Both the position numbers and the translations under genes were made by a program. The notes beneath the pieces are model-generated. The model was not told the DNA's origin and did no database searches. It saw only the letters and a list, made by a program, of their open reading frames with translations. A stretch of 64,000 nt of DNA from Squalus acanthias (lineage: Eukaryota), in the NCBI GenBank assembly GCA_030390025.1, contig CM059431.1:118546001-118610000 (forward strand), given 5' to 3'. Below, in pieces: positions 20,391 to 44,061 of this stretch (the stretch's first letter is position 1; the number at the start of each line of letters is the position of its first letter).

Positions 20391-22648
20391 GGACCCCTGG
20401 CCACAAGGAACAAAGTTGAGGTTGCCCAAACTGTTTTGCTTCAGGGCTTAAAATCTGATGAGCAAGTTTATGCTTGTGCAGTTGTTTTCCTGTTGTTCCA
20501 GTGCAGGGGAATGTACCCCCTAATTAAAACAGGATAGTTTCTTTTGCACCAGATCCATTACAAAACTCCTTAATTGTTGCCTTTTTGCTATTCTATTAAG
20601 TGACAATAGGTGAATTACATTTATACAACAGCCTTAATGTAGTTATGTAAATCTAGTTAATTAGAATTCAGACTTTGAATACAGACAAAAAATAAGCCTT
20701 GTCTTTACAAAACTTGGGAGTGCAAAATTATTAGGCTATTAGCAATAACATGAACAATTATGTTAATTATACCTAATTTACATATACAAATTAGGTTCAT
20801 TGGAACAGAGTTTTCTCTCTAGCTGAAAATATATAAATCCTATCTTCATGAACTTAAAGGGTATGGGTAAGGTCACCAGTCATATTTGGAAAAAGTATAT
20901 TGCAATAAATCATACTTTTCTTTTGGTTTCAATCTCGAGTATTTTTTACACGTCAGTCACTCAGATAAAAGATTTCTGTTTAAGTGCTTTAATACAGGCA
21001 AACTGCTATGGCATTGTTCTGTTGTACTGTCATTAGCATCTGACTAGTATCTATGGCTACAAGTAGTGAGTAATATCATTTTGATGCCAATTATTAATAA
21101 TTTCTAGGTGAATTCTTAAAAGATATGAATTGATTATTGGTTTGAGTCTCATCCTAAGGGACTGTAGCCGTTGGTGCAGATGTGGAGTTACCGTTATGGG
21201 AGAGGATGTAGACCGCAGTCGTGTCACAGCAAGTGAGTCTTGTGAGCCAAGAAATGTCTGAATTGTCAGGATGTGTAATTCAAAATGTAATTGTGATTGA
21301 CTTTGCAAATTTAACATGAAAAGTAAATTTCAGTCACATATTTTAACAACAGCCTTTTCTGTTTCAGCGTTACTAATGGCTGTGATCCCCTATCAGTCTG
21401 TAATGCTGATTGTAAACTGATATGGGAAGGTACAAATCAGATAACAGGATAGCTATATTGGTTCCCAATTGAGTCCAGTAAAAAGAATCTAAAAACAAAA
21501 GTAGCTCCCAGAAGTAGTCATTAATATTTTGTGCAGTTCTTTTACATTGTCCTTTAACCAATCAATATCCGTCACGAGCAGTGATCAAACCAATTACAGT
21601 AGAAAGAAGATCATATCTGGCTCTAAAATTCAATGTCATTTGTCAGAATAGTGTCACACAGCCGACATTTGATTCCTGGGTAGTGAGATAACTGATTTCC
21701 ACTGGCACTGCATTGGTGCACAGTTGGTATTAGGACTCCTTGGTGAAAAAAAGGGAAAAGTCAAGCAGGGGTTCCACTTCTAAGCCTTATCCGGTCACCT
21801 CTACTGGAAGCAGCATGTGTGAATGTTGGATGAGGACGGGATTGGGCATGACTGTGATGTCCCTAGTAGTTGAATCACCTGCTAACACTCTTGGCTTGCA
21901 CATAAATAATGGTCACTTCGATGACGGCAAGCAGCACCCCTGGAATGTAGACCAACAATGGATCCTTCCTTCAGTAAAGGGAGAGCGGAAGGGAAGAAAC
22001 ATTGCTGAGCAAAAAAATGTAACAGCCACAATGGTAATTTTTTTTTCTCAGCCAATTTTTTTCTTTCGTCTCCTCAGGGCATGGATATTTTGCTGGAATA
22101 TGTTCCGAGGGTGATGAGTACCTCTGTTGTTGCTCATCGTTAACTCAGCGCAGACCACAGATTGAATTTGGGACCTTTCTAGTCTGTATGGTTTTGTTAC
22201 TCACAGTATAACCTCTGTGATTCAGTGGGGAAGGTTAATTGGTCTGAAACACGTAACTATAGTGAAAAGACACAGATAATTTACTAAATATGCCCTGTTA
22301 GTGGGCATGAACATGGTATTAAACTGTTTTCTCTGAGAGGTACTCAGATTATATTTATAGTATTCTGGGGTCTAAAAAACTACCACAGCATGAGATCTAA
22401 GTGCTGAATTTCCTCATTGTCTTCAGCACTTACGTTGTTGTTTTACCATTATTGAGCTGAAAAGTCCGAGTTAATTTGCATTTTAGTGCATTTAGGTAAA
22501 TAAATGCAAGTTTCCTCGCGCTTTTTAACAATGCAAATTTTACGTCTGTCAAAGCCCTCAGGGCTCATTTATATAGCTGCTCTGTTCAAATACATGGAAG
22601 TTTCCTGGGTTTATGCCGATTGGTGTAATTTTACATCCAAAAAGCAAA

Positions 22649-23479: not shown

Positions 23480-24120
23480 ATAGCAGTGTGTCCAGGCCAG
23501 AGAATCAGGCTGTGTGGCTGAGGACAGCAGCCAACCAGGTAATGCTCTCCTCAATGTGTCTGCAGGCTATACCGGTCCTTTGAGGTCTTCTCTGAGAAGC
23601 CGTGCATCTGACAGCTGCACCCCTCTAATGATGCTATTGAATCAATTGCCAACACTCTTGGCTTGCACATAAATAATGGGCACTTGCATGACAGCAAGCA
23701 GAACTCTTGGAATGTAAACCAACAAAATGGTCCTTCCTTCACTGAAGGGAGAGTGCAAGGGGAGAAACATTGGTGAGCAGAAAAAATACAACAGCAACAA
23801 TGGTCTTTTTTTTCTCAGCTAATTTTTCTTTTCCTCTCCTCAGGTTATTAACGTGACAGCAGCACTAAAATATCTTGGTTCTGCATCCTTCCAGAGTGCC
23901 ACGGGGCATCTGAGCAACATTAGCCAAACAGCTGTCAAGATGTGTATCCTGTCGTCTTTCATAGAGCAGACAGGTTCCTCTACTTGGCCATCTCCCCCAG
24001 GCAGCAGAGGCACAGAGCAAGGGGACTTCTATAGGATAGCTGGATTCCCCAGGATGCAGGGTGCCATGACAGCACGCATTGAAGGCATCGATCGAGCAGT
24101 CACTGACGTATGTGTGTAGA
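23480..24120 (+). pseudogene. Degraded Harbinger transposase fragments
   Basis: TAALKYLGSASFQSATGHLSNISQTAV and YRIAGFPRMQGA motifs. Confidence 0.7.
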
Positions 24121-24435
24121 CAGGAGTTCCACTCTGCCAATGAGGCCATGTCCTCAATGGCTTAACTATGGTGTAACCACGGCATAACTGACATCGAGAA
24201 AATTCAGGATCTTTGTGCGTGATGCAGATCATGGTTGAAAATGGCAGAATATGTCCTTGCATTAATCAACTGAGTTAGAGGTGAGGTTATGTTAGTTAAG
24301 GCGAAACAAAATTAGGCATTATTGGCATATACATCTATTCAGTAAACTTGAGAGTTACTGGCTCCTTGTACTCAATAAAAACCAAGTAAGTAAAATAGAA
24401 AAACATTAGATTATACATTATATCTACTATATAAT

Positions 24436-25794
24436 ATATCTACTATAACCCCACTGACTCTCACAGCTACCTTGATTACACTTTGACATGAATCTTGTCA
24501 TTCATGTGGAAATGACTTATGAAATAATACTGGGCAGCCTGCTGGTGGCGCTGTCCAGGGAGAGTATAAATACTCGGGCATGGGCCCAGCTTGCTCAGGA
24601 CATTCTTCAACAGGAACTAGTGAAGGACACAAGTAGACCTCCATGTTGAAAAACAGTTGATTAAAGCTTTGTTTAACGCTTAGACCAAGTGCCTAGTAGT
24701 TTTCTTACATCACACTTCTTCCCAGCCCGCTTCCTGTAAGGACTCTATTCCATTTTCCCAGTTTCTCTGTCTTCATCACATCTGTTCTGACAATGCCACC
24801 TTCCACACCAGTGCTTCCGATATGTCTTCCTTTTAATTCAAACGAGGATTCCCCTCCACCGTTGTTAACATGGCCCTCGACCATGTTTGTCCCATTTCCC
24901 GCACTTCTACTCTCACTCCTTCCTCTCCCTCCCAGCACCACGATAGGGTTCCCCTTGGCCTCACCTTTCACCCCACCAGCCTTCACATTCAATGGATCAT
25001 CCAACACCATTTCCGCCACATCCAGCCACCACCAAACATATTTTCCCCTCCCCTTTCAACATTCTGAAGGGACCGTTCTCCCCGCGACACCCTGGTCCAC
25101 TCCTCCATCACCTCTAACACGTGTTCCCCTTCCCATGGCACCTTTCCATGCAAGCGCAGGAGATGCAACACCTGCCTTTTCACCTCCTCCCTTTCCACCA
25201 TTCAGTGCCCCAAACACCCCTTCCAGATGAAACAGTGATTTACTTGTACTTCTTTCAATTTAATATACTGTATTCGCTGCTCACGATGCAGTCTCCTCTA
25301 CAATGGGGAAATCAAATGCAGATTGGGTGATAGCTTTGCTGACCACCTCTGTTCAGTCTGCAAGCGTGACCCTGAGCTTCCAGTCGCTTACCATTTTAAA
25401 TCTCCGCCCCACTCCCACTCTGACCTCTCTGTCCTCGGCCTCCTACATTGTTCCAATGAAGCTCAATGGAAGTTCGAGGAACAGCACCTCATCTTTTCAT
25501 TATGCACTTTACAACCATCTAGAGTCAACACTGAATTCAACAATTTCAGATCATAACCACTGCACCCATTTTTTCAGACCCATCTTTTGTTTCTTTACTT
25601 GTCCCATTACATCTCCTTTTCCTTGCACCATCAACCCTTTTGTCATTTAATCTCTCCTGCCTCCCAGCCTATCACCGACCTTCCCTTTTGTTCTATACTC
25701 CCCTCCCCCTGTTCCTTGCCACTGTACTTGCTTAAAACCTGTTGAATTTCTAATCTTTTCCAGTTCTGAGGAAAGATCATCGACCTGAAATGTT
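24436..25794 (+). mobile_element. Penelope-like retroelement 3' part (RT thumb + GIY-YIG), degraded
   Basis: PTDSHSYLDYTSS..KDSIPFSQF and YCIRCSRC..GESNAD / DHLCSVCKRDPELPVAYHF motifs. Hammerhead-like motif at 25766-25794. Confidence 0.85.
24484..24712 (+). mobile_element. 229 bp solo LTR inside Penelope element
   Basis: TG..CA ends, exact 5-bp TSD CACTT, TATAAA at ~24566 and ATTAAA at ~24660. Confidence 0.8.
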
Positions 25795-26371
25795 GGGGGG
25801 AATCTTAACCCCAAGTATGAGTGGCTTGGGGGCGAGTGGGGAGTTAAAATAAGTGATTTTTAGATCACAACCTGCAACCCGGTTCCAAGGCGTTCATTTC
25901 TGGGTTTAACGGAGGCGCATTGGATGCCTGCGAGTAACCTACTCGCCTAAGTTGGTGCTTTGATTAATGCCAGTGGGTGGGTACTTATTGCAGCAATTAG
26001 CGTCCTTATCAGTATTAATTCAATTTTACTAACCTTTAAATTTAACATCTCCAGCACAGGCTTCCCGGAGCTCGTTAATCTCGCCAGTGAAACAGAGGCG
26101 AAATTGAGCCGCAGTTTATGCGGGTATTTAAATTTGTGATTGCCCATCTGAATAAAAGTTCAGTTATTACAGCTGGTGTCTTTGTTCCCTCTGGCAAATG
26201 TTTGGCAGAGAGTTCCTGTGTTGATATAGCTTTTTCTCTACTGTGAAGCCTTTCAAACTGACAAGATCTGGATGGGCAGAACGTTGGATGTGTTTCACAG
26301 CACATCAGAAGACAAAGACCTTCACCATCCACGGCAGCGACAACGTGCTGTGGTTGAATCAGCAGGTACAC
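25795..26371 (+). mobile_element. Harbinger end plus start of transposase, running into the minisatellite
   Basis: GGGGGGAATCTT terminus. ATG at 26272 gives MGRTLDVFHSTSEDKDLHHPRQRQR, resembling the N-termini of the other transposases in the window. Confidence 0.6.
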
Positions 26372-29300
26372 TAGAGAGGTGCACAGGATAGCGGTGCACA
26401 GGCGGGAGTTGAACAAGAGAGAAGTGCACAGGAGAGAGATACAGAGGAGAGAGGTGCACAGGAGAGAGGGGCACAGGAGAGAGATACAGAGGAGAGAGGT
26501 GCACAGGAGAGAAATACAGAGGAGAGAGGGGCACAGGAGAGAGATACAGAGGAGAGCGGTGCACAGGAGAGAGATACAGAGGAGGGAGGTGCACAGGAGA
26601 GAGGGGCACAGGAGAGAGGTGCACAGGAGGGAGGTGCACAAGAGGGAGTTGAACAGGAGAGAGTTGATGGGAGGGAGTTGCACAGGAGAGAGTTGAACAA
26701 GAGAGAAGTGCACAGGAGAGAGATACAGAGGAGAGAGGTGCACAAGAGGGAGGTGCACAGGAGAGAGGTGCACAGGAGGGAGGTGCACAGGAGGGAGGTT
26801 GCACAGGAGAGAGGTTGCACAGGAGGAGGTGCACAGGACAGAGGTGCACAGGAGGGAGGTGCACAGAGGGAGGGTGCACAGGACAGATGTGCACAGGACA
26901 GAGGTGCGCATGAGGGAGGTGCACAGGAGGGAGGTGCACAGGAGAAGGTGCACAGGAGCGAGGTGCAGAGGAGAGAGGTGCACAGGAGGGAGGTGCACAG
27001 GAGGGAGGTGCACAGGACAGAGTTGCACAAGGGGAGGTGCTCAGGATGAGGTGCACAGGACAGAGGTGCACAGGAGGAGGTGCACAGAGAGAGGTGCACA
27101 GGATTAGAGGTACAAAGGAGAGAGGTGCACAGGAGGGAGGTACACAGGAGAGAGGGGCACAGGAGGGAGGTGCACAGGAGAGGAGGTGCACAGGAGGGAG
27201 GTGCACAGTGAAGAGGTGCTCAGGAGGGAGGTGCACAGGAGAGAGGTGCACAGGAGGGAGGGTGCACAGGACAGAGGTGCACAGGAGGGAGGTGCACAGG
27301 AGGGAGGTGCACAGGACAGAGGTGCACAGGACAGAGGTGCACAGGAGGGAGGTGCACAGGAGGGAGGTGCACAGGAGAGAGGTGCACAGGAGCGAGGTGC
27401 ACAGGAGAGAGGGGCACAGGAGGGAGGTGCACAGGAGGGAGGTGCACAGGACAGAGGTGCACAGGAGGGAGGTGCACAGGAGGGAGGTGCACAGGACAGA
27501 GGTGCACAGGAGGGAGGTGCACAGGAGAGAGGTGCACAGGATAGAGGTACAAAGGAGAGAGGTGCACAGGAGGGAGGTACACAGGAGAGAGGGGCACAGG
27601 AGGGAGGTGCACAGGAGAGAGGTGCACAGGAGGGAGGTGCACAGGAGAGAGGTGCACAGGAGGGAGGTGCACAGGAGAGAGTTGCACAGGAGGGAGGTGC
27701 ACAGGACAGAGGGGCACAGGAGAGAGGTGCACAGGAGGGAGGTGCACAGGACAGAGGGGCACAGGAGGGAGGTGCACAGGAGGGACGTGCACAGGACAGA
27801 GGGGCACAGGAGGGAGGTGCACAGGAGAGAGGGGCACAGGAGAGAGGTGCACAGGAGAGAGGGGCACAGGAGAGAGGGGCACAGGAGGGAGGTGCACAGG
27901 AGGGAGGTGCACATGAGAGAGGGGCACAGGAGGGAGGTGCACAGGAGAAAGGTGCACAGGAGAGAGGTGCACAGGAGGGAGGTGCACAGGAGAGAGGTGC
28001 ACAGGAGAGATGCGCACAGGAGGGAGTTTCACAGGAGAGAGGTGCACAGGAGAGATGGGCACAGGAGAGAGGGACACATGTGGGAGGTGGACAGGAGGGA
28101 GGTGGACAGGAGGGAGGTGCACAGGAGGGAGGGGCACAGGAGAGAGGTGCACGGGAGAGAGGTGCACGGGAGAGAGGGGCACAGGAGAGAGGGGCACAGG
28201 AGGGAGGTGCACGGGAGAGAGGGGCACAGGAGAGAGGTGCACGGGAGAGAGGTGCACAGGAGGGAGGGGCACAGGAGAGAGGTGCACGGGAGAGAGGGGC
28301 ACAGAAGGGAGGGGCACAGGAGGGAGGGGCACAGGAGAGAGGTGCACGGGAGAGAGGGGCACAGGAGGGAGGGGCACAGGAGAGAGGTGCACAGGAGAGA
28401 GGTGCACGGGGGAGAGGGGCACAGGAGAGAGGTGCACGGGAGAGAGGTGCACAGGAGGGAGGGGCACAGGAGAGAGGTGCACAGGAGAGAGGTGCACAGG
28501 AGAGAGGTGCACAGGAGGGAGGTGCACGGGAGAGTGGTGCACAGGAGAGAGGTGCACAGGAGGGAGGTGCACGGGAGAGAGGGGCACAGGAGAGAGGTGC
28601 ACAGGAGAGAGGGGCACAGGAGGGAGGGGCACAGGAGAGAGGTGCACAGGAGAGAGGTGCACAGGAGGGAGGTGCACAGGAGAGAGGTGCACAGGAGAGA
28701 GGTGCACAGGAGAGAGGTGCACAGGAGGGAGGTGCACAGGAGGGAGTTGAACAGGAGAGAGTTGATGGGAGGGAGTTGCACAGGAGAGAGTTGAACAAGA
28801 GAGAAGTGCACAGGAGAGAGATACAGAGGAGAGAGGTGCACAAGAGGGAGGTGCACAGGAGAGAGGTGCACAGGAGGGAGGTGCACAGGAGGGAGGTGCA
28901 CAGGAGAGAGGTGCACAGGAGGGAGGTGCACAGGACAGAGGTGCACAGGAGGGAGGTGCACAGGACAGAGGTGCACAGGACAGAGGTGCACAGGAGGGAG
29001 GTGCACAGGAGGGAGATGCACAGGAGAGAGGTGCACAGGAGCGAGGTGCACAGGAGAGAGGGGCACAGGACGGAGGTGCACAGGAGGGAGGTGCACAGGA
29101 CAGAGGTGCACAGGAGGGAGGTGCACAGGAGGGAGGTGCACAGGATAGAGGTGCACAGGAGGGAGGTGCACAGGAGAGAGGTGCACAGGATAGAGGTACA
29201 AAGGAGAGAGGTGCACAGGAGGGAGGTACACAGGAGAGAGGGGCACAGGAGGGAGGTGCACAGGAGAGAGGTGCACAGGAGGGAGGTGCACAGGAGAGAG

Positions 29301-32300
29301 GTGCACAGGAGGGAGGTGCACAGGAGAGAGGTGCACAGGAGGGAGGTGCACAGGACAGAGGTGCACAGGAGGGAGGTGCACAGGAGGGAGGTGCACAGGA
29401 CAGAGGTGCACAGGACAGAGGTGCACAGGAGGGAGGTGCACAGGAGGGAGGTGCACAGGAGAGAGGTGCACAGGAGCGAGGTGCACAGGAGAGAGGGGCA
29501 CAGGAGGGAGGTGCACAGGAGGGAGGTGCACAGGACAGAGGTGCACAGGAGGGAGGTGCACAGGAGGGAGGTGCACAGGACAGAGGTGCACAGGAGGGAG
29601 GTGCACAGGAGAGAGGTGCACAGGATAGAGGTACAAAGGAGAGAGGTGCACAGGAGGGAGGTACACAGGAGAGAGGGGCACAGGAGGGAGGTGCACAGGA
29701 GGGAGGTGCACAGGAGAGAGGTGCACAGGAGGGAGGTGCACAGGAGAGAGGTGCACAGGAGGGAGGTGCACATGACAGAGGGGCACAGGAGAGAGGTGCA
29801 CAGGAGGGAGGTGCACAGGACAGAGGGGCACAGGAGGGAGGTGCACAGGAGGGACGTGCACAGGACAGAGGGGCACAGGAGGGAGGTGCACAGGAGAGAG
29901 GGGCACAGGAGAGAGGTGCACAGGAGAGAGGGGCACAGGAGAGAGGGGCACAGGAGGGAGGTGCACAGGAGGGAGGTGCACAGGAGAGAGGGGCACAGGA
30001 GGGAGGTGCACAGGAGAAAGGTGCACAGGAGAGAGGTGCACAGGAGGGAGGTGCACAGGAGAGAGGTGCACAGGAGAGATGCGCACAGGAGGGAGGTTCA
30101 CAGGAGAGAGGTGCACAGGAGAGATGGGCACAGGAGAGAGGGACACATGTGGGAGGTGGACAGGAGGGAGGTGGACAGGAGGGAGGTGCACAGGAGGGAG
30201 GGGCACAGGAGAGAGGTGCACGGGAGAGAGGTGCACGGGAGAGAGGGGCACAGGAGAGAGGGGCACAGGAGGCAGGTGCACGGGAGAGAGGGGCACAGGA
30301 GAGAGGTGCACGGGAGAGAGGTGCACAGGAGGGAGGGGCACAGGAGAGAGGTGCACGGGAGAGAGGTGCACAGGAGGGAGGTGCACAGGACAGAGGGGCA
30401 CAGGAGAGAGGTGCACAGGAGGGAGGTGCACAGGACAGAGGGGCACAGGAGGGAGGTGCACAGGAGGGACGTGCACAGGACAGAGGGGCACAGGAGGGAG
30501 GTGCACAGGAGAGAGGGGCACAGGAGAGAGGTGCACAGGAGAGAGGGGCACAGGAGAGAGGGGCACAGGAGGGAGGTGCACAGGAGGGAGGTGCACAGGA
30601 GAGAGGGGCACAGGAGGGAGGTGCACAGGAGAAAGGTGCACAGGAGAGAGGTGCACAGGAGGGAGGTGCACAGGAGAGAGGTGCACAGGAGAGATGCGCA
30701 CAGGAGGGAGGTTCACAGGAGAGAGGTGCACAGGAGAGATGGGCACAGGAGAGAGGGACACATGTGGGAGGTGGACAGGAGGGAGGTGGACAGGAGGGAG
30801 GTGCACAGGAGGGAGGGGCACAGGAGAGAGGTGCACGGGAGAGAGGTGCACGGGAGAGAGGGGCACAGGAGAGAGGGGCACAGGAGGGAGGTGCACGGGA
30901 GAGAGGGGCACAGGAGAGAGGTGCACGGGAGAGAGGTGCACAGGAGGGAGGGGCACAGGAGAGAGGTGCACGGGAGAGAGGGGCACAGGAGGGAGGGGCA
31001 CAGGAGGGAGGGGCACAGGAGAGAGGTGCACGGGAGAGAGGGGCACAGGAGGGAGGGGCACAGGAGAGAGGTGCACAGGAGAGAGGTGCACGGGGGAGAG
31101 GGGCACAGGAGAGAGGTGCACGGGGGAGAGGGGCACAGGAGAGAGGTGCACGGGAGAGAGGTGCACAGGAGGGAGGGGCACAGGAGAGAGGTGCACAGGA
31201 GGGAGGTGCACGGGAGAGAGGGGCACAGGAGAGAGGTGCACAGGAGAGAGGGGCACAGGAGGGAGGGGCATAGGGGAGAGGTGCACAGGAGAGAGGTGCA
31301 CAGGAGGGAGGTGCACAGGAGAGAGGTGCACAGGAGAGAGGTGCACAGGAGAAAGGTGCACAGGAGGGAGGTGCACAGGAGAGAGGGGCACAGGAGGGAG
31401 GTGCACAGGAGAGAGGGGCACAGGAGGGAGGTGCACAGGAGAGAGGTGCACAGGAGGGAGGTGCACAGGAGAGAGGTGCACAGGAGGGAGTTGCTCAGGA
31501 GAGAGGTGCACAGGAGGGAGGTGCACAGGACAGAGGGGCACAGGAGAGAGGGGCACAGGAGGGAGGTGCACAGGAGGGAGGTGGACAGGAGGGAGGTGCA
31601 CAGGAGGGAGGTGCACAGGAGAGAGGTGCACAGGAGGGAGGTGCACAGGACAGAAGTGCACAGGAGGGAGGTGCACAGGAGGGAGGTGCACAGGACAGAG
31701 GTGCACAGGAGGGAGGTGCACAGGAGTGAGGTGCACAGGACAGAGGTGCACAGGAGAGAGGTGCACAAGAGAGAGGTGCACAGGAGAGAGGTGCACAAGA
31801 GAGAGGTGCACAGGAGAGAGGTGCACAGGAGAGAGGTGCACAGGAGGGAGGTGCACAGGAGTGAGGTGCACAGGAGGGAGGTGCACAGGAGGGAGGTGCA
31901 CAGGAGTGAGGTGCACAGGACAGAGGTGCACAGGAGAGAGGTGCACAAGAGAGAGGTGCACAGGAGGGAGGTGCACAGGAGTGAGGTGCACAGGAGAGAG
32001 GTGCACAGGAGAGAGGTGCACAAGAGAGAGGTGCACAGGAGAGAGGTGCACAGGAGAGAGGTGCACAGGAGGGAGGTGCACAGGAGAGAGGGGCACAGGA
32101 GGGAGGTGCACAGGAGGGAGGTGCACAGGACAGAGGTGCACAGGAGGGAGGTGCACAGGAGGGAGGTGCACAGGACAGAGGTGCACAGGAGGGAGGTGCA
32201 CAGGAGAGAGGTGCACAGGAGAGAGGTGCACAGGAGAGAGGTGCACAGGAGGGAGGTGCACAGGAGAGAGGGGCACAAGAGGGAGGTGCACAGGACAGAG

Positions 32301-34221
32301 GGGCACAGGAGGGAGGTGCACAGGAGGGAGGTGCACAGGAGGGTGGGGCACAGGAGAGAGGGGCACAGGAGGGAGGTGCACAGGAGGGAGGTGCACAGGA
32401 GAGAGGGGCACAAGAGGGAGGTGCACAGGAGAGAGGTGTACAGGAGAGAGGTGCACAGGAGAGAGGTGCACAGGAGGGAGGTGCACAGGAGAGAGGTGCA
32501 CAGGAGGGAGGTGCACAGGAGAGAGGTGCACGGGAGAGAGGGGCACAGGAGGGAGGTGCAATGGAGAGAGGTGCACAGGAGAGAAGCGCACAGGAGGGAG
32601 GTTCACAGGAGAGAGGTGCACAGGAGAGATGGGCACAGGAGAGAGGGACACATGAGGGAGGTGGACAGGAGGGAGGTGGACAGGAGGGAGGTGCACAGGA
32701 GGGAGGGGCACAGGAGAGAGGTGCACGGGAGAGAGGTGCACGGGAGAGAGGGGCACAGGAGAGAGGGGCACAGGAGGGAGGTGCACGGGAGAGAGGTGCA
32801 CAGGAGAGAGGTGCACGGGAGAGAGGTGCACAGGAGAGAGGGGCACAGGAGAGAGGTGCACGGAGAGAGGGGCACAGGAGGGAGGGGCACAGGAGAGAGG
32901 TGCACAGGAGAGAGGTGCACAGGAGAGAGGTGCACAGGAGAGAGGTGCACAGGAGAGAGGTGCACAGGAGAGAGGTGCACAGGAGAGAAGCGCACAGGAG
33001 GGAGGTGCACAGGAGAGAGGTGCACAGGAGAGATGGGCACAGGAGAGAGGGACACATGAGGGAGGTGGACAGGAGGGAGGTGGACAGGAGGGAGGTGCAC
33101 AGGAGGAGGGCACAGGAGGAGGGCACAGGAGAGAGGTGCACGGGAGAGAGGTGCACGGGAGAGAGGGGCACAGGAGAGAGGGGCACAGGAGGGAGGTGCA
33201 CAGGAGGGAGGTGCACGGGAGAGAGGGGCACAGGAGAGAGGTGCACGGGAGAGAGGGGCACAGGAGGGAGGGGCACAGGAGAGAGGTGCACAGGAGAGAG
33301 GTGCACAGGAGAGAGGTGCACAGGAGGGAGGTGCACGGGAGAGAGGGGCACAGGAGAGAGGTGCACAGGAGAGAGGGGCACAGGAGAGAGGTGCACAGGA
33401 GGGAGGTGCACAGGAGAGAGGGGCACAGGAGAGAGGTGCACGGGAGAGAGGGGCACAGGAGGGAGGGGCACAGGAGAGAGGTGCACAGGAGAGAGGTGCA
33501 CAGGAGAGAGGTGCACAGGAGGGAGGTGCACCGTAGAGAGGGGCACAGGAGAGAGGTGCACAGGAGAGAGGGGCACAGGAGGGAGGGACACAGGAGAGAG
33601 GTGCACAGGAGAGAGGTGCACAGGAGAGAGGTGCACAGGAGGGAGGTGCACGGGAGAGAGGGGCACAGGAGAGAGGTGCACAGGAGAGAGGTGCACAGGA
33701 GGGAGGTGCACGGGAGAGAGGGGCACAGGAGAGAGGTGCACAGGAGAAAGGTGCAGAGGAGAGAGGTGCACAGGAGGGAGGTGCACAGGAGGGAGGGGCA
33801 CAGGAGAGAGGTGCACAGGAGGGAGCTGCACAGGAGGGAGGGGCACAGGAGAGAGGTGCACGGGAGAGAGGGGCACAGGAGGGAGGGGCACAGGAGAGAG
33901 GTGCACGGGAGAGAGGGGCACAGGACAGAGGTGCACAGGAGAGAGGGGCACAGGAGGGAGGTGCACAGGAGGGAGGTACACAGGATGGAGGGGCACAGGA
34001 GGAAGGTGCACAGGATGGAGGTGCACAGGAGGTAGGTGCACAGGAGGGAGTTGCACAGGAGGGAGGTGCACAGGAGGGAGTTGCACAGGAGGGAGGTGCA
34101 CAGGAGGGAGGTGCACAGGAGGGTGGGGCACAAGATGGAGGAGCACAGGAGGGAGGTGCACAGGAGGGAGGGGCACAGGATGGAGGAGCACAGGAGGGAG
34201 GTGCACAGGAGGGAGGTGCAC
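26372..34221. repeat. ~7.85 kb 15-bp minisatellite, consensus GAGGTGCACAGGAG(A/G)
   Basis: Directly visible: roughly 520 units, purine-rich plus strand, variant units repeated in blocks. Confidence 0.98.
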
Positions 34222-34510
34222 TGTAGTTACATAGGGATGGATTTTGTCTTGGGGTCGGGTTGGGGTCGTGTTACCCGCATTTTGTGTTGCCCCCCCGACT
34301 CCATATTAATGTGGATGAATGATGCGATTTTAACTTAATTGGCCAATTGAATTCCAACATGTGGGAACCCATGGCCAATGAGTTATTCCAGTCTGAAAGT
34401 CGCCTCCGATGATGTCATCATTGCTGCTGCATTTAAGGTCTGCAACAAGCCTTGCTCCCTCTGCAGGCTGCCAAGCTTTTGGACCTCAAATCTAAAAACC
34501 TGCAGCAGGA

Positions 34511-36413
34511 ATGGCCAGCCAACGGCCCAGGGCTGCTCCCAGGTTCCATGATGTTGCCCTTCAGGCTTTGGTGGATGGAGCAAGAGCCAACAGGGAGGTG
34601 CTCTTCCCCTCCTCAGGGAGGAAGAAGCCTCCCCAGCAGACAAAGGCTGTGTGGGTCCAGATCGCCCAGGAGGTCACCTCTTTATCATTCACATGCAGAA
34701 CCTAGATCCAGTGCAGGAAGAGGTTTCATGACCTTCTACATACTGCTAAAGTGAGTATGACTTTCCCTTCACCCTCAATCTGATCCCCATTGCCTCTCCT
34801 CACCAGCACTCAGCTTTAGCAACCTCTTCCTCCATATCCCACTTGACACTGACATCCATGCACCCTTACCCATTCCCTCTCCCTCTATGGTCACATTCAC
34901 CTTACTATTCGACTATGCAGCCCTCACACTCCCTATAACTGTCATGCTTTGAAAACAACTTACAACACACAGGGAGGGCCCTTAGTCTCGCCAGCTCAAT
35001 CCATCTTTGTCTCCTTCTAAGCATCTATGCTATGGATTCTCTACACTCACTCCTTCAATCTCACTCAAACTCCACTTATCTCCCTCATTGCAGGAAAAGA
35101 GAGCTCACAATAAAAGGGAAAGAGCCAGGACAGGAGGAGGGCCACCCTCATTAGCCCAGCTCACCACCTGGGAGGATGCGGTCCTGGAGATCGTGGGCGT
35201 GGAGGAGGAAACGCAAGTGGGGGATGGACAGACGGGTGCATCACAGCAAGCTGGTGACTGAATAGTGTTCCATCTCTCTCATTGACATTGCATGAGTCGC
35301 TGATAATGAATCTGAAGCTCTAACAGATGGATTTATGATCATCTGCAATATGCAATGTGCATGTAAACTTGGCATCACATCTCTGACTCTTTCCTTTACT
35401 CTCCCACAGGACCATCGCAAGCACCCGTCCCCACTAGCCAGGAGGAAGAGCCTGAACAGACAGACTCCTTAGAGGAAGCTGCAACCTCTGAGGGCGCAGC
35501 ATCAGCAGAATTCAGCGCACCCAGCACCAGCGCAGACACTCACACCTCGGTGGGACCCTCGGGACATAGAGTAGTGTTGTCACCTGGTGTATCACAGCTC
35601 ACAAGTGAGCATCAGCAGATGGTGGAGACAGGGACAGCAGTGGAGAGTCCAAGTCAGAGGGCGCAGGACTCTCCTAGCTCGGCTCAGCTGCATGTCAACC
35701 CTCTGCCTCTGGGTCCATCCATAAAATCAGCGGTGCTGGGACTCCAGGAACAGATGCAGGAGTCTCTGACAGGTTTTGTCTCCAGGGTCGCTGCGAGTGT
35801 GGAGCGAATGGAGGAGTCCATCACTAACATGAGCAGAGCCTTTCTGGAGTCATTGACGCATGAACGCATCACCATGGAAAGGATGGCAACCTCCATGGAG
35901 GTGATAAGTTGCCAGAGTGCAGAAAACATGGTCATTGTTCTGAATAGAATGACATCTCTGGAGGAGCGATGGTCATCTATTGAACAGAGAAACCAGACCT
36001 TCATGGAAGTCCTTCTGAGTAGGACTTCCAGTGCAGATACGGGTCCCCATGGCCCCCCTGATGTGCAGCAAGGTGCTCTCAAGCCACTTGCAAGCGCTGA
36101 GGTGGACCTGACCCATGAGAGGGATGTTGGTGGCACACAACAAGGAGGTGGGGGCTCCTCTCCAAGCGCTCACACTTCCATGCCACTGACAGGTCCTCGG
36201 TCAGAGCCCCAGCAGAGTCCGCACCCATGTGAGATCGGCATCTCAACCCCTGCCCAGCCGCAGGAGCAGCAGGTTCGCAACCCCAGAGGACGCCCGTCAA
36301 AGGAGTCGAGACAGGAGCAGCAACAAAGTGAGCAGGGGGCCTCCACTTCTGCTGAAGCCACAGGGGAAGTACCACGTAGGAGCATGCGTAAGAGAAAGAA
36401 ACTGCACAAATAG
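34511..36413 (+). pseudogene. Harbinger Myb/SANT-like DNA-binding protein, 3 exons (34511-34750, 35094-35253, 35410-36413), one premature TAG
   Basis: GT-AG introns join in frame (phases 0 and 1). RAAPRF..W.QIA..RT*IQCRKRFHDL; KRAHNKRERARTGGG. TAG at 34703-34705 sits where the 45.8 kb paralogue has Trp. Confidence 0.85.
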
Positions 36414-36670
36414 TCACAAGGGTAGTCACTTGGGTGAATTTTGATGTGTATTGTGAAAAAGCCATCAGCTGTAAAGTGTAAATAAAAACTCTGATAGCTA
36501 CAGCTGCAGTTGTGGCGTCTGTCATTTCGCTAATGGGACTTCCACAATGAGGCCTTAGGATAACTTGCAATTGTCAGTATGGTGGTCACATTGTTAGGGA
36601 TCCGCTGGGTCTGGGTCATTGTCGTAGCTCTGGTAAGAAGCTGCGAGGCAAAAGTGCTTGCTTGTCTAGG

Positions 36671-37948
36671 CTAAGCAAATCTGGCCAAGATGAGTGCGTT
36701 CCTTGCATTCCGGGCAGCTATGGTCTCGCGTAATGCTGCCGCTGGTTGAGGGGCCTCTGCAAGTTGTTCGTTCTCTCTCTCCTCCTCCTCCTCCTCATCT
36801 GAGGAGGCTATGTGAGGAGCCACTTGGTCCTCCGGCATCTGTAAGCCACGACACTGTGCCATGTTGTGAAGTGCACAGCAAACCACGATGATTCTGGAGA
36901 CCCTGGCTGCTGAGTATTGCAGGGTTCCACCTGATCTATCCAGGCATCTGAAGTGCATCTGCAACAAACCGATGGTTTGCTCGATTATGGCTCTGGTGGA
37001 AATGTGGCTGGAGTTGTAGCTCTCCTCAGCTGCGTTGGATGGGCTTCTCAACGGCGTCATTAGCCACGTCTTCAGGGGATAGCCCTTGTCTCCAAGTAGC
37101 CATCCGTGAAGTTGGTCTGGCGGACTGAATAGCGGAGGCACACTAGACTGGCGCAGTATGAAGGAGTCATGGCAACTGCCAGGGTACTTGGCACAAACAT
37201 GCAGAACTTCCTTGTTGTGGTCACACACCAGCTGAACGTTGAGGGAGTGGAAGCCCTTGCGGTTGACAAAAATACCTGGATTGCGATGGGGTGCCTTAAG
37301 GGCCACATGTGTGCAGTCAATGACGCCCTGCACCCTTGGAAAGCCTGCCAGATTAGCTAATCCAACCGCACGTGCCGTGACACTTGCTCGATCCTTGGTG
37401 AAATGGATGTGATTGTGCGCGATGGCAAAGAGGGCATCGGTTACCTGCGTGATGCAGGTGTGTGCGGCCGCCTGGGAGATGCCACTGATGTCTGCTGCTG
37501 ATCCCTGGAATGAGCCTGAGGCAAAAAAGTTGAGTGCGGTGGTGATTTTGACGGCCACTGGTAAGGGGCATCCACCTGGTCCTCTGGGCTCCAGGTCTTG
37601 TTGCAGCATTGCGCAGATGTCACCCACTACCTCTCGCGAAAGTCGGAGCCGCCTTTGGCACTGCTGCTCAGACATGTTGAGGTAGCTGACCCTCTGTCTG
37701 TAGACCCTGTTTGGGGGGTATCTCCTGCGGCGACGGCCTTCCATACGCTGGCCCCTTCTGTCCTGTGCAGCTTCAGGTGGGTGAGCAGCAGCTTGGCGCT
37801 CCTGCTGTTGCTGCTGCTGTTGGTGCTGCTGTTGTTCATGGTTCTGCTGGTGCCGCGGCTGTTGTTCGTCCTCATCGGATACCCAGGAGGGAAAGAAATA
37901 AATGGCTCCCATGCCTCTGGTATATGTCTCAGTTGAGGAAGCCCTCAA
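36671..37948 (-). CDS. Harbinger DDE transposase (HARBI1-like), open 425 aa (likely start Met at 37912)
   Basis: [38 protein letters not shown] and IEQTIG motifs; N-terminal polyQ and C-terminal acidic tract. Confidence 0.95.
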
Positions 37949-38597
37949 TGAGGGTGGCCAGAGGGGTTTCCCAGGAGGTCATACTGCAGATGGGTGTCAG
38001 GCTCCAAACTTCCAGGGCTGTGGTTATGCCTTCTAAAAGTTCCCCCAGACCTGTGACAACAAAGTCCTGCCACCTGCAATTGATGGCTGATCAAATCTCC
38101 TATTTAAAGGTTGAGCTGCAGCTGAGAGTCAGCAATCCACTTGTGCTCCCGCCAGGTTTCACTGGAGTGTTTCCCATCAGGCGTGCTTCACGTGGGAAAA
38201 GGGTTAAACTACCTAAAATGCTTCAAAATGGCATTACTGAGCCACTTTAGGGATTGTTAAGGGCGTTAATGGCCTCTCCCGCCTCTTGGAGGCGGGACGG
38301 AGTCGGGAACCCCGATACCGATTTTGTCAAAATTGCGTGGAGGCGTGTTGGAGTTGGAATGGGGTCGGGACCCCCGAATCTGCTACTTTAACCCCCCACA
38401 CGCCTCCAAACCCGACTCCACGGGTCGTTCAAAATCCAGCCCATAGAGGCATAATGGCACAGAACAAAGCCATTCGGCCCATCGATTCCGTGCCAGCTCT
38501 CTGTAGAGCAATCCAGTCAGTCCCATTCCCCTATCCCCGCAGCTCTGCAAGTTTATTTCCCTCAAGTGCCTATCCAGTCTCCCCTTGAAAACAATGA

Positions 38598-39492
38598 GGG
38601 GTAAAAATTAGGTCGCGCCCCATTTGGGGCGCAAATATCGTCTGGATGCAAATATTAGCGCCTGGCGCTAATTATCGGCACTGACTGGAAACTTCACTTT
38701 TACCGCCCCGGGAGGTGAGTAGAGCGCTAAATCAGGTGCTGCACACCTGTCTTAAGGCGCAAAGGCCAAGGAGTGAGGCGCTAACTCAGAGCGCTGGCGA
38801 AGCTCGTGTAATGTCAGTCAGCAATGGAACACACACACAATGGCACGGGCCAGTTCTTAAAGGGGATGGTTAATCTTGCTTTCCATCCACATCCTGTTCA
38901 TTGCAGCCTTGAATCTCGGCCTGGAGAGACTTGCACATCAAATGTGCTGGAAAGAACAATGGAGAGTACCAGGCAAAGAGATCAGAGTGCAGCTCCCACA
39001 GTCTCTGCTAAATCGATACAAGGAATGGCAAATCAAAATGAACCTGCAAAGTGCTGCTCAGTACCCAAAACTCCTTCACACAACATTGAATCTCTCCAGA
39101 AGTCTCTCCCTCTCTCTCTCTCAGAATGCATAGTTCAAAAATGCCACCAACAATAAAAGACAGGAAGAGGCCCCCTTTAAATAGCGCCCCCCCCAGCCCC
39201 ACAGCGATTGATAGCGTTCCAGTCTTCTGGTCGTTGGATGCGCCAGGCGGTAAGGCAGGGGGCGCCACTCAATTTCCGCTCCGGGGTGCCACAAGGGCGT
39301 TGCACCATGGAATGACGTCATAATCTGCGCGCGCAGGTGGTCGCAGCGGTAAGTTTTAGCGCCGCCGCACAATCTCTAGTTAAGTTCCCGAGCGGCGCAA
39401 ACATCGCTGCGCCCGGGCGTTAGTGGCTTTGCACCCCATTAGCGCCCTCTTAAGGCGCTAACGGGAGGCGCAACCAACTGAATTTTTACCCC
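38598..39492. mobile_element. Harbinger MITE family B
   Basis: TIR GGGGTAAAAATT / AATTTTTACCCC with TGA TSD. Confidence 0.9.
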
Positions 39493-41810
39493 TGAGTGTC
39501 TCCGCTTCCACCACTTCCGTCGGCAGCGAGTGCCAAGTCCTCACCACTCGCTGCGTAAAAAAGTTTTTCCTCACATCCCCCCTCTATCTCTTGCCCAAAA
39601 CCTTAAATGTGTGTCCACTAGTCCTTGTGCCATCAACTAGTGGGAACAGCTTTTCGCCATCTAGCCTATCCAAACCCGTCATAATCTTGTACACCTCGAT
39701 CAAATCACCCCTCAAATTTTTTGCTCTAATGAAAACAAATCCAGCTTCTCCAGCCTGTCCTTGTAACTAAGATCCCCCATCCCTGGAACCATTCTGGTAA
39801 ATCTCCTCTGCACCCTCTCAAGTGCCTTCACATCCTTCCTAAAGTATAGTGACCAGAATTGGATGGAATACTCCAGTTGTGGCCTAACCAGTGCATTATA
39901 AATGTTCAGCATAACTTCTATACTTTTGTACTCAATACCTCTATTTATGAAGCCCCAGATCCAATATGCTTTCCTAACCACTCTCTCAATATGTCCCGCC
40001 ATCTTCAGGGACCTATGCACATTAACTCCCAGGTTCCTCTGTCCCTGCACATTCTTTAAAACTGTGCCATTCAGTGTATACCGCCTCTCCCTGTTCCTTC
40101 TGCCAAAATGCATCACCTCACACTTCTCTGTATTAAATGCCATCTGCCACTTGTCTGCCCATTCTGCTTGCCGTTCTGTGTCCTGTTGTAGTCGATTGGT
40201 ATCATCCTTACTGTTTGCCGCACCCCCAAGTTTGGTGTAATCGGCAAAGTTAGAAATTCTACTCTGTATTCCAATATCCAGGTCATTTATATATATCACA
40301 AAAATCAGTGGCCCCAGCACTGACCCTTGGGGAACACCACTGTCTACCATCCTCCAGTCTGAAAAACAGCCATTTACCACAACTCGCTGTTTTCTGTCCT
40401 TAAGTCCATTCCTTATGCAAGCTGCCACTGACCCACCTATTTCATGAGCCTCAGTTTTATTAACCAGCCTTCTATGTGCTACTTTGTCAAATGCCTTCCT
40501 AAAATCCATGTAGACAACATCCATTGCATTTCCTTCACCTATCCTCCCTGTTACTTCGTCAAAAAATTAAACTGGTTTAGTCAAACATGATCTGCCTTTT
40601 ACAATCCCATGTTGGCCCTCCTTAATTAGCTTAAACCTCTCCAAGTGCCTGTTAATTTTTTCCTTGATTATTGTTTCTAAAACTTTACCCACCACTGATG
40701 TTAAACTGACCGGCCTGCAGTTACTAGGATTGTCCTTACACCCTTTCTTGACAATAGTGTCATATTTGCCACTTTCCAATCCTCAGGCACCTCCCCTGCA
40801 TCTAGGGAAGATTGGAAAATGATGCCCTTCCGCTATCTCCTCCCCCAATTCCCTTAGCAACCTGTGATGCAAGCCATCTGGACCAGGTGACTTATCCACT
40901 CTAAGCATACCCAGCCTTTCTAGTACAACCTGTCTATCAATTTTCACCCCTTCCATTGCTTCTACCTTTTCCACTGCTACCGATATTTTGTCAGCATCCA
41001 CCTCCTTAGTAAACACCGATGCAAAGTACTCATTGATTATTCTAGCCTTGCCCTGCGCCTCTAAGCATATATCACCTTCTTTGTCCCTAATAGGCCCCAC
41101 CCCGCCTCTTACTACCCGCTTACTGTTTACATGCCAGTAGAAGATTTTTGGGTCCCCTTTTATGTTAACTGCCATTCTACTCTCATATTCTCTCTTTGCC
41201 AATCTTATTTTCATCTTCACTTCCCCTCTCAACTTATTGTATTTGGTCTGGTTCTCTCTTGAAGAATTCACCTGACATTCATCATATACCCTCTTTTTTT
41301 GTTTAATCATCTTCTCTATCTCCCTCATCATCCAAGGAGCCCTTGCTTTGGTTCGCTTACCCTTCCCTCTTGTTGGAATGTACCTAACCTGTACTTGGAA
41401 CATCTCCTCCTTAAAGATCACCCATTGTTCCATTACAGTTTTTCCTGTCAGCCTTTGGTTCCATTTTACTCTGGCTAGATCCTTTCGCATCCCATTGAAG
41501 TTAGCCCTATTCCAGTTTAGAAGTTCCACTCATGATTGTTCCTTGCTCCTCGCCATTGCTAATCTAAATCTTATGATACGATGATCACTCGTACCCAAGT
41601 GTTCTTCCACAGACACTTGGTCGACCTGACCCACCTCATTCCCCAGCACCAGATCCAGTAATGCCTCCTTCCTAGTTGGGCCAAGAACATACTGGTCAAG
41701 GAAATTCTCCTGAACACATATCAGAAATTCCTCCCCCTCCTTTCCCTTTACCCTGGCATTATCCGAATCGATATTTGGGTAATTAAAGTTCCCCAATATC
41801 ACCACTCTAT

Positions 41811-42703
41811 GGGGGAGAAATTCAGTATCGCCCCATTTGGGGTGCAATTATCGGCCGGGCGCAAAGATTAGCGCCTGGCGCTAATTATCGCCACCGACTG
41901 CAAACTTGACTTTTATCGCCCCTGGAGGTGATTGCAGCGCTAAATCAGGCGCTTCACACCTGTCTTAAGGCGCAAAGGCCGAGGAGCGAGGCGCTACCTC
42001 AGAGCGCTGGCGAAGCTCATGTAATGTCAGTCAGCAGTGGAACACACACACAATGGCACGGGCCAGTTCTTAAAGGGGATGGTTAATCTTGCATTCCATC
42101 CACATCCTGCTCATTGCAGCCTTGAATCTCGGCCTGGAGAGACCTGCACATCAAATCTGCTGGAAACAACAATGGAGAGTACCAGGCAAAGAGCTCAGAG
42201 TGCAGCCCCCACAGTCTCTTCTAAATCGATACAAGGAATGGCAAATCAAAATGAACCTGCAAAGTACTGCTCAGTACCCAAAACTCCTTCACACAACGTT
42301 GAATCTCTCCAGAAGTCTCTCCCTCTCTCTCTCAGAATGCGTAGTTCAAAAATGGCACCAACAATAAAAGGCAGGAAGCGGTCACCTTTAAATAGCGCTC
42401 CCCCTTTCCCTTCATGACTGCAGAACGCTCCCCTCAACCTGTCATTGCTAGCGTCAGGCGGTAAGGCAGGGGGCGCCACTCAATATCCGCTCCGGGGCGA
42501 TACCGGGGTGTTGCGCACTCGACTGACGTCACGATCTGCCGGTGCAGGAGATCGTGGCGGTAGTGTTTAGCGCCGCCGCAAAATTTCTAGTTAATTTCGC
42601 GAGCCGCGCAAACTTCGCCGCGCCTGGGCGCCAGATGCTTTGCGCCCCATTAGCGCCCTCTTAAGGCGCTAACGGGAGGCGCAACCAACTGAATTTTTCC
42701 CCC
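41811..42703. mobile_element. Harbinger MITE family B
   Basis: TIR GGGGGAGAAATTC / GAATTTTTCCCCC with TAT TSD. Colinear with 38598-39492. Confidence 0.9.
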
Positions 42704-43244
42704 TATAACTCTTGCATATCTCTGCGATTTCCCTGCAGATTTGCTCCTTTACCACCCTCTCACTATTTGGACGCCTATAGAATACCCCCAATAGCGTGAT
42801 CACACCCTTTTTGCTCCTCACCAAATGGACTCTGTCTTTGTCCCCTCAAGAACATCCTCCCCTTCCAACATTAAAATGTCTTCCTTAATCAGCACTGCCA
42901 CCCCACCTCCCTTTTTTTCTTCCCTATCTTTTCTGAACACCTTCTACCCTTGAATATTAAGTGCCCAGTCCTCACCGCTTTTAAGTCACGTTTCCGTGAT
43001 TGCCACAACATCATATTGCCACATGGCTAATTGTGCTTGTAGCTCACCAAACTTATTCACTACACTTTGTGCGTTTACATACATGCATTCTGAACCCATT
43101 TTCTTATTCTGCTCCTAGCTAATATGGTACTACATCCGCCTCTAGCACTACTTTCTTCTCTGGTACTATCCAACACACTCACTCTTTTATGCACCTTATT
43201 CCCCTTTTCTACTCCTATATGCTGGTGCCCATCCCCCTGCCAAG

Positions 43245-44061
43245 CTAGTTTAAACCCTCCCTAACTGCACTACCAAATCTCCCCACGAGAATATTGGTCC
43301 CGGCTCTGTTGAGGTGTAACCCGTCCGGCTTGTACACATCCCACCTTCCCCAGAAACGGTCCCAATGGCTCAAGAATCTAAAGCCCCCCCTCCTGCACCA
43401 CCTCTCCAGCCACGCATTCATCTGTTCTATCCTCCTATTCCTGTACTCATTGGCACGTGGCACCGGGAGTAATCAGAGATTACTAACTTTGAGGTCCTGC
43501 TTTTTAATCTCTTTCCTAACTCCCTATAGTCTGCCTGCAGGACCTCATCCCTCTTTCTACCTATGTCGTTGGTACCAATATGGACAATGACCTCTGGCTG
43601 TTCACCTTCCCCCTTCAGAGTGTCCTGCATCCACTCAGTGATATCCTTGACCCTGGCACCAGGGAGGCAACATACCATCCTGGAGTCACGTCTGCGCCCA
43701 CAGAAACGCCTATCTGTTCCCCTAAACAATGAATCCCCTATCACTATTGCTCGTCCACTCTTCTTCCTCTCCCCCTGTGCAGCTGAGCCACCCGTGGTGC
43801 CATGGTGTTGGCTCATCACCTCCACCAGTTTCCAGAACTGTGAACTGGATAGCGAGTGAGATGCGCTCTGGGGATTTCTGCCCTACCTGCCTGCTCCTCC
43901 TTCTCTGCCTGCACATTCTGTGGCTGCGGGGTGGCCACTTCTAGAAACGTGCTTTCCAAGTATTTCTCAGCCTCGCGGATGTACTGTAGTGACTTCAGCT
44001 GCCGCTGAAGCTCCGAAACCCGGAGCTCGAGTTGCTGCAGTTGGTGACACTTCCTGCACAT
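43245..44061 (-). pseudogene. CR1 ORF1 (coiled coil + SGNH/GDSL esterase), frameshifted
   Basis: VIGDS, PGA, HIGTND and DGLHLN blocks in successive frames. Confidence 0.88.

Follow-up and report, generated by a model that had tools for sequence, protein, structure and literature searches.

A 15-bp minisatellite beside a decayed Harbinger transposase N-terminus in Squalus acanthias and its probable origin in the transposase linker

Tandem repeats derived from transposons

That transposons can give rise to repeats, and a transposase gene even to a satellite, has been published: the Chenopodium satellite CficCl-61-40 derives from a CACTA-like element, Jozin, and specifically from its tnp2 domain (PMC7320549). 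As described in the available part of that paper, CficCl-61-40 resembles the locus considered here in that an array is joined to the transposase gene of a DNA transposon, with a coding piece as start monomer; however, it is a nanopore-confirmed major satellite family with a 40-bp monomer that stems from a conserved domain of a plant CACTA element, whereas the present case concerns a vertebrate Harbinger, a 15-bp unit of five codons, a variable linker and one array of assembled length. The miDNA4 and Xstir satellites of Xenopus were born inside MITEs, and minisatellites derived from Alu, B1 and MaLR elements are also described, together with the model of Haber and Louis, which invokes slippage between short flanking repeats (accessible portions of PMC9659126 and PMC6947457). 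These share with the present locus a monomer internal to a transposable element, slippage at short direct repeats and amplification by unequal exchange, but they arose from non-coding parts of the elements, while here the motif lies in the codon phase of a transposase. In Merlin elements, internal tandem repeats have been termed “proto-satellites” and their spread by transposition has been proposed (excerpts of PMC8101967); the likeness is that of tandem repeats inside a DNA transposon, the difference being that the Merlin arrays are short and the elements judged mobile, whereas here 524 units lie in an element missing its other end.

Vertebrate PIF/Harbinger elements have terminal repeats, 3-bp target duplications, and a DDE transposase together with a Myb-like gene (PMC9179366, PMC9392472, as far as their text was available). 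All these features are found in one complete element at this locus (element B), while the element adjoining the array (element A) displays an end and a transposase N-terminus, and differs from the described type in having one end only, with neither the core nor an assigned Myb gene. The accessible text of the two papers contains no mention of repeat expansion in the N-terminal linker, and no published Harbinger-derived minisatellite or repeat-prone transposase linker was found in the literature searched, which lay mostly outside subscription journals and supplements.

Element A and the array

The window, i.e., the whole 64,000-nucleotide stretch of Squalus acanthias DNA that was analysed, contains the following features at and around the left side of the array.

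24777-25794, plus strand: 3′ part of a Penelope-like repeat, the insertion target of element A, 78-82% identical to a copy at 55597-56667
25795-26271, plus strand: terminal repeat of element A (25795-25806), followed by the non-coding leader on its transposase side, recognized by end motif and local similarity
26272-26364, plus strand: decayed Harbinger transposase N-terminus of 31 codons, with protein matches to P0121, P0131 and P0130
26365-26377, plus strand: first repeat unit, in the ATG frame, 13 nt long rather than 15, which shifts the frame
26378-26440, plus strand: seed-like linker units in the order of the single-copy P0130 linker (score 44, 7/3000 shuffles), straight after the ATG-frame match
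26373-34221, plus strand: minisatellite of about 524 head-to-tail units, about 7.85 kb as assembled, well above chance
26797-27261, plus strand: indel-rich copy of 28898-29345, with densely packed single-base indels and substitutions between flanks that are 100% identical

The Harbinger-type terminus that the earlier note had placed at 25795 was borne out: the end of element A, GGGGGGAATCTT, matches the end pattern of the window elements carrying 3-bp target duplications (element B, two MITEs nested in a LINE, and elements F and I), and Penelope-like contigs from all four sequencing runs depart from the reference exactly behind 25794. The last three bases of the Penelope-like repeat before 25795 are GTT, the presumed target duplication. 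The Penelope label itself is tentative, the related copy at 55597-56667 having a weak GIY-YIG match (E 0.006). The leader that follows has local scores of 44 and 45 against the transposase ends of elements B and C (shuffle maxima 36 and 38), and of 74 against a MITE at 57765 (shuffle maximum 38); it belongs to a multicopy family of about 80-85% identity, represented by 48-81 contigs at single positions, and one 383-bp contig, found in two runs of one sample, covers 25774-26156 without any difference. Rfam gave nothing near threshold in 25500-26400, including for a hammerhead-like motif in the flank.

An ATG at 26272, 477 bp in as had been claimed, encodes MGRTLDVFHSTSEDKDLHHPRQRQR. The corresponding distances proposed for the two other coding elements were recovered as 530 bp in B (end 38442, ATG 37912) and 481 bp in C (ATG 1043, end 1524); in C, however, it is a GTG at 1049, and not the ATG at 1043, that lines up with the other starts. 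The 31 codons are the best six-frame match in the window for the N-terminus of P0121 (score 59, against 34 for the best unrelated one), and they score 63 with P0131 and 49 with P0130, each at 0/3000 shuffles; the majority letters of other copies at five of these codons are D, E, E, H and G. With the 40-residue N-terminus as query, a word-index protein search returned two candidates, none at E ≤10, and the relatives come from a profile search. Proteins matched by this N-terminus (P0131, P0085) carry DDE_Tnp_4, while the DDE core is absent from element A: tblastn detected no transposase core on the plus strand between the array and 46354. Within the 64-kb window no fitting site was found for a right terminal repeat of element A, for a right copy of GTT or for the rest of the Penelope-like tail, which occurs only at 56665. 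Element A is thus a truncated Harbinger-derived remnant rather than a whole element and, since core and right end are lost, this copy would be immobile as it stands.

The 15-bp array of 7.85 kb reported previously is present in the assembly at 26373-34221 (period 15, 523.8 copies, 87% matches, TRF score 11428; 341 ApaLI sites), its plus strand being purine-rich, with 50% G and 31% A. The edges are diverged and the interior is homogenised: the mean number of differences per unit is 1.3-1.5 at the 5′ edge, falls to 0.2-0.6 in the interior and is 0.8 at the 3′ edge, and exact internal repeats of 499, 357 and 277 bp occur at offsets of 615, 2084 and 2684. This profile, together with exact duplications at kilobase offsets, fits slippage and unequal exchange. 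Six GAQD[G/S]-type units were identified, four of them in the last 250 bp of the array and one being the first whole unit. The indel-rich block at 26797-27261 is probably a sequencing or consensus error; it holds nine of the 16 units whose length is not 15 nt, the other seven lying outside.

The right side of the array is occupied by other elements, as follows.

34222-44346, minus strand: LINE whose 3′ tail abuts the array, with three nested insertions, recognized by RVT_1 and tail sequence; limits approximate
34234-38442: element B, a complete Harbinger inserted into the LINE tail, with terminal repeats and target duplication ATA
37751-37769, minus strand: single unit-like stretch, AQDRRG, in the linker of element B, 15 bases of which match the array exactly
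38598-39492: Harbinger MITE inserted within the LINE, target duplication TGA
41811-42703: second copy of this MITE, 88% identical, target duplication TAT
44396-46354, minus strand: element G, the Myb half of a Harbinger (Myb_DNA-bind_5, E 8e-6), its 3′ end cut beside the LINE 5′ end

The LINE, which we take to be CR1-like, has an RVT_1 match at 39715-40563 (E 1e-18) and weak esterase-type matches at 43430-43879. In element B the transposase ORF (37912-36671, minus strand) is intact, as the earlier note had it, but the Myb gene (plus strand, ATG 34511) has a TAG at codon 66. The similarity of element G to the last Myb exon of B ends at 44396. G is oriented like the missing half of A and truncated as that half would be, and its Myb sequence is closer to B (188) than to H (176) or D (124); it could then be A's own Myb half, with about 1.5 kb between them deleted upon LINE insertion. 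This reading is tentative and rather unlikely, because only 6 of 12 positions are shared between the end of G, GGCCCCAGTATT, and that of A, their flanking triplets are not the same (TAT for G, GTT for A), the Penelope tail does not continue beyond G, and no DNA similarity above shuffles links the two ends. Element G is probably an insertion separate from A.

Origin of the array

The explanation that we favour, with good though not full confidence, is that the array lies in the variable linker of a decayed Harbinger transposase, where it expanded in situ out of a single motif of five codons, and that it is likely neutral in a dead copy. The main evidence comes from P0130 (XP_067848358.1), a protein of the sevengill shark Heptranchias perlo, in which the N-terminal motif is followed by one GAQDGGA motif and then by the transposase core. 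The order of motifs is the same at this locus, i.e., N-terminus and then GAQD-type units; birth of the array from the linker motif is therefore likely. P0130 matches the ATG frame at 26323-67 and the last five array units at 0/3000 shuffles each; straight behind the ATG-frame match, it also matches the first units in their RGAQE phase (7/3000). In the X-bridged reading, the best four among the compared proteins were P0131 (75), P0130 (73), P0121 (67) and P0122 (60), the next scoring 51, and in the tree, which does not contain P0121, P0130, P0131, P0122, P0085, P0005 and P0006 form one clade (support 97/93). The first five array units had no match in P0131, P0121, P0122 and P0085 (523, 429, 1003 and 310/3000 shuffles, respectively). 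Counts were also low in the wrong-frame control (36/3000 on P0130 and 6/3000 on P0121), so that the shuffle p-values are loose; support for the seed motif comes mainly from P0130, an automatic chimeric model joining a pirin fragment to a transposase and picked post hoc from 249 proteins. The similarity of the array monomer to the single-copy stretch of the P0130 linker, which matches in position and order, is thus one at the protein level with one homologue of another species. In the assembly the array adjoins element A sequence at its 5′ side, while the 3′ side is lost; with the continuation into the core absent, only its 5′ end anchors it to the gene. An origin inside a Harbinger transposase N-terminus, as previously proposed, is supported by the homologues, which continue to the core, one of them via a single GAQDGGA.

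The proposal that the transposase N-terminus is a repeat-seeding site also gained support: tandem in-frame repeat runs occur in the linker of 6 of 79 relatives and in the adjacent core of none (0/79), and they fall in four separate lineages of the tree, as expected of a repeat-prone site.

The AQDRRG stretch of element B, in contrast, which had been linked to the array as its seed, did not hold in this role. The 19-mer is present at 37751-37769 on the minus strand, and it contains the sole exact 15-mer of the array found elsewhere in the window; by simulation, such a match arises in 0.06% of cases with linker composition and in 3% for the single-strand whole window (1-2% for a 13-mer). In the alignment, AQDRRG stands opposite AQQEGG and AQEHGG from the clade resembling A; however, B itself lies outside the clade that matches the N-terminus of A, and its stretch is therefore not supported as the seed. 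Element B as parent of the array is rejected on the tree, in which it is a separate lineage.

The proposed seed is the GAQDG motif of five codons, bounded by repeated Gly-Ala, which would have grown by slippage and then by unequal exchange. The first few duplications were presumably in frame and tolerated, as in the relatives with in-frame linker runs, and the large growth would have followed the death of the gene. The LINE may have landed near the natural 3′ edge of the array, and a later or simultaneous deletion, e.g., between two LINE copies, could have removed the core and the right end and brought the Myb half of G alongside.

Alternatively, the expansion might be older than the insertion, an array-carrying subfamily having spread by transposition, with this copy one of many that bear the array. 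Array-like unit variants absent from the window occur in contigs; the unit therefore exists elsewhere and could predate this locus. Moreover, in each of the four runs the summed contig depth is higher at 26370-26399 than in the leader bins, the leader itself is multicopy as noted above, and tandem repeats are known within mobile DNA transposons (PMC8101967, in the part available). On the other hand, depth does not equal copy number, and the summed depths were not taken as such; run X6, a small share, was excluded from origin claims. Among the contigs listed, no leader-array junction was found at high identity, and two distinct leader-bearing ones (two runs, one sample) match no further than 26362, leaving 33 and 44 letters unaligned, so that those copies do not continue as element A does. 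Furthermore, the leader differs by 15-20% from its relatives, as against exact duplications in the array interior, suggesting that most of the growth is much younger than the insertion. An older expansion is unlikely, though not negligible. It would be compatible with a linker origin, the element then being a vehicle.

An unrelated earlier minisatellite, joined to the N-terminus by deletion, gene conversion or mis-assembly, with a peptide likeness due to chance and low complexity, appears less probable still. The missing core and right end, the existence of the unit family elsewhere, the low p-values attainable in wrong-frame controls and the error-prone appearance of part of the array would all suit such a joining; however, the first unit stands in the ATG codon phase exactly where P0130 has GAQDGGA, and the next 20 residues keep the order of the P0130 linker, which is not expected by chance.

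The coding status of the array differs from that given in the earlier note. The ATG frame had been said to run directly into an array that preserves the frame as RGAQE; instead, with 2 nt missing from the first unit, it stops at a TAG (26389-26391) after 39 codons, and the RGAQE phase is never entered. In a single contig of one run, 2 additional bases follow 26372, but this may be an array contig and not a leader-bearing copy. Within the array there are 16 shifts of unit phase and seven units with in-phase stops, the longest clean in-phase run being 166 units; the array of element A is therefore not a coding satellite, contrary to what had been claimed, and no open frame connects the start codon through it with the remainder of the gene. 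Selection on the RGAQE frame was likewise rejected, and the substitutions give no sign of it: of the possible changes, 9 of the 10 synonymous and 28 of the 32 non-synonymous ones are seen, as are all 3 that create a stop, in a test that is near saturation and has little power. That the array contributes to a selected, functional protein, either as a giant low-complexity N-terminal extension or as a piece exonised by the host, is very improbable: the in-frame expanded linkers of relatives reach 225 aa (P0012), host-transposase chimeric models exist in the clade (P0121, P0130) and the 166 units are open in phase, but against these stand the early and the internal stops, the seven units of aberrant length even beyond the error-like block, the absent core, the missing synonymous bias and the ESM Atlas, where the RGAQE-phase translation had no match at 0.9 or above.

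Significance for Harbinger linkers

The N-terminal linker of vertebrate Harbinger transposases could, more broadly, be a recurrent nursery of codon-phase minisatellites, whose runs would be spread by transposition and retained as long repeat linkers in Harbinger-derived proteins of sharks, crocodilians and birds, the 15-bp family then being a genome-wide satellite with one Harbinger family as its source; at present this is a speculative extension, to which we give little credence. Short in-frame runs would be tolerated as long as the element is alive, while multi-kilobase arrays would form after the copy dies.

The locus preserves a record of the birth of a minisatellite, in which the parent motif, the codon phase and the frame-breaking step are legible at the 5′ edge, while a relative, P0130, still displays the ancestral state with one copy of the motif. 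Together with the in-frame linker expansions in four lineages, it makes a testable case of repeats escaping an initial protein constraint.

The element A remnant and its N-terminus

Harbinger elements, LINEs and Penelope-like repeats are densely packed in the window. The DNA resembles that of cartilaginous fish: its intact transposase is closest to gene models from sharks and rays, with up to 65% identity. Element A, the decayed Harbinger remnant forming the 5′ flank of the 15-bp array, starts at 25795 within a Penelope-like repeat. Penelope-like contigs from all four sequencing runs depart from the reference exactly at this start, while a single 383-bp contig (two runs, one sample) crosses the junction with zero differences; the end motif of the remnant agrees with that of five window elements having both ends and 3-bp target duplications. 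The insertion lies directly behind a CTGANGA...GAAA motif of the Penelope-like tail (25765-25794; second site at 56639-56667), which we take to be hammerhead-like; Rfam gave no match for the motif beside element A.

The non-coding leader (25795-26271) is weakly similar to the transposase ends of the coding Harbingers B and C, above the level of shuffles, and it represents a multicopy family from which the element A copy is ~15-20% different in the contigs. ATG 26272 is where the N-terminus of the transposase relative P0121 finds its best six-frame match in the window (score 59 vs 34 for the best unrelated hit), and the reading from this ATG aligns to two other relatives, P0131 and P0130 (0/3000 shuffles each). 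The majority letters of other leader-family copies encode an acidic and histidine patch resembling that of these proteins. These comparisons indicate that ATG 26272 opens a genuine transposase N-terminus. P0121 and P0130 are Heptranchias models that join host exons (EF-hand, pirin) to the N-terminus of the transposase clade, fusions that would be either annotation artefacts or exonisation.

Probable birth and structure of the array

P0130 (XP_067848358.1, Heptranchias perlo), an automatic gene model in which a pirin fragment is fused to a Harbinger transposase, contains the shared HHPRQ motif, then one GAQDGGA, then the transposase core. It aligns to the ATG frame at 26323-67 and next, directly, to the first array units in RGAQE phase (7/3000 shuffles; chosen post hoc among 249 proteins, with wrong-frame controls giving 36/3000 and 6/3000 on two of five homologues); it also aligns to the last five units (0/3000). 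Among the five N-terminal homologues scored, P0130 only matches the first five units. GAQD-type units are the first whole unit, four within the last 250 bp and one more in the interior. In the simplest history, five codons between two Gly-Ala dipeptides would have been duplicated, a step that fits the short-flanking-repeat model of tandem-repeat origin, as outlined in the available part of PMC6947457.

The array (26373-34221) has a period of 15 and 523.8 copies according to Tandem Repeats Finder; segmentation, two end fragments excluded, yielded 509 units with 15 nt, the other 16 having 13, 14 or 16 nt. Four master units, differing at two positions, predominate. The 5′ edge averages 1.3-1.5 differences per unit and the 3′ edge 0.8, against 0.2-0.6 in the interior, where blocks of 499, 357 and 277 bp recur exactly, offset by 615, 2084 and 2684 bp, respectively. 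Diverged edges and a duplicated interior are what slippage and then unequal exchange are expected to leave (established knowledge; PMC6947457, in the part available), and the pattern is consistent with this course. The segment 26797-27261 repeats 28898-29345 with many indels, the surrounding flanks being 100% identical, and probably represents a sequencing error; the exact array length and 9 of the 16 odd-length units are therefore uncertain, the other seven lying outside this block.

The array had been proposed as a coding-frame satellite, a view contradicted by 16 changes of unit phase and by seven units with in-phase stops. The first unit (26365-77) begins in the codon phase of the ATG and is 2 nt short, so that the ATG frame runs into a stop at 26389-91. 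There is no sign of selection on the frame, in a substitution test that is nearly saturated (synonymous 9/10, non-synonymous 28/32 and stop 3/3 of the possible changes present). Unit variants absent from the window occur in contigs, which places copies of the unit elsewhere too. Two contigs that carry the leader (two runs, one sample) end their match at 26362, with 33 and 44 letters unaligned, so at least some sister copies do not proceed in the manner of element A.

The right flank and neighbouring elements

Element B (34234-38442, target duplication ATA) starts twelve bases past the array, within the 3′ tail of a LINE (minus strand) that extends to about 44346 and contains two MITE copies; the insertion of B into the short-repeat tail, a few bases from the LINE end, is visible at 34222-34236 and 38440-38500. 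The transposase ORF of B is intact and its Myb gene (34511-34753) has a TAG at codon 66. The unit-like AQDRRG of B, previously described as a near-identical unit, is a genuine 15-base match to the array, in a linker position (the variable stretch before the core) shared with AQQEGG and AQEHGG of A-like proteins; B as the parent is excluded, as it falls outside the clade of A-like proteins in a tree of 34 selected rows. The stretch may be either a distant cousin of the seed motif or a chance likeness.

Past the LINE lies G, a truncated Myb half ending at 46354, and no plus-strand transposase core is present between the array and this end. More likely, a deletion brought together two separate insertions, A and G; a mis-join in the assembly may also account for the junction. 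That G is the missing half of A agrees with its orientation, but only 6/12 bases of their ends agree, the flanking triplets are not the same and the Penelope-like tail does not restart beyond G. The subterminal region of G carries a 125-bp insert (46146-46270; TGTAAT...ATTACA ends, 5-bp duplication CTGAC) that resembles a solo LTR, though a very short one.

Other observations concern the neighbouring elements. The Harbinger at 14667-16320 has an internal deletion that seemingly fuses the transposase N-terminus to an acidic C-terminal stretch; its junction has its own 15-bp repeat (15231-15307, 5 copies), a second, small example in which repeats occupy a purine-rich junction in a transposase, and 47758-49276 is a differently deleted paralogue. 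Three 54-bp tandem copies, 98% alike, occupy 61286-61449, in intron 1 of another Harbinger Myb gene. Two copies of a 210-bp repeat (21870-22078 and 23637-23844; 85% identical, 1.8 kb apart) are found, the second followed by a transposase-core fragment (23838-24141). A short inverted-repeat element (62480-62700) apparently splits the Myb gene of the element starting at 60548, with more mobile sequence near 62970.

The linker as a probable repeat-prone site

The proposal that the transposase N-terminus is a repeat-seeding site is supported in general terms. Of 249 fetched proteins, 79 could be aligned at the start of the core and had 20 residues or more ahead of it (the other 170 were dropped); in six of these 79, clear tandem periodicity precedes the core, vs none in the adjoining core. 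The six belong to four lineages with different repeats, all in automatic gene models:

Lineage 1: P0008/P0012 (Scyliorhinus, Mustelus)
Lineage 2: P0011/P0019 (Heptranchias, Chiloscyllium)
Lineage 3: P0162 (a sparrow)
Lineage 4: P0232 (crocodilians), on a long branch

Near relatives of lineages 1-3 (P0003, P0007, P0114) have no such runs. The short branches of the cross-species pairs suggest that they may be domesticated host genes. In all six proteins the runs stay in frame.

There is ample documentation of tandem repeats that originate within transposable elements (PMC9659126, PMC6947457, in the parts available). The Chenopodium satellite from CACTA tnp2 (PMC7320549) has a transposase-gene origin, as proposed for this Harbinger array; in the accessible text on Merlin (PMC8101967), tandem repeats lie within DNA transposons judged mobile, whereas element A is a decayed remnant. 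A transposon-born array in the linker of a Harbinger transposase is well supported, and the claims of coding and dispersal made in the earlier note are dropped. Going by these sources, the general process, including birth from a transposase gene, was already known; no report of a Harbinger-linker instance was found in the literature searched.
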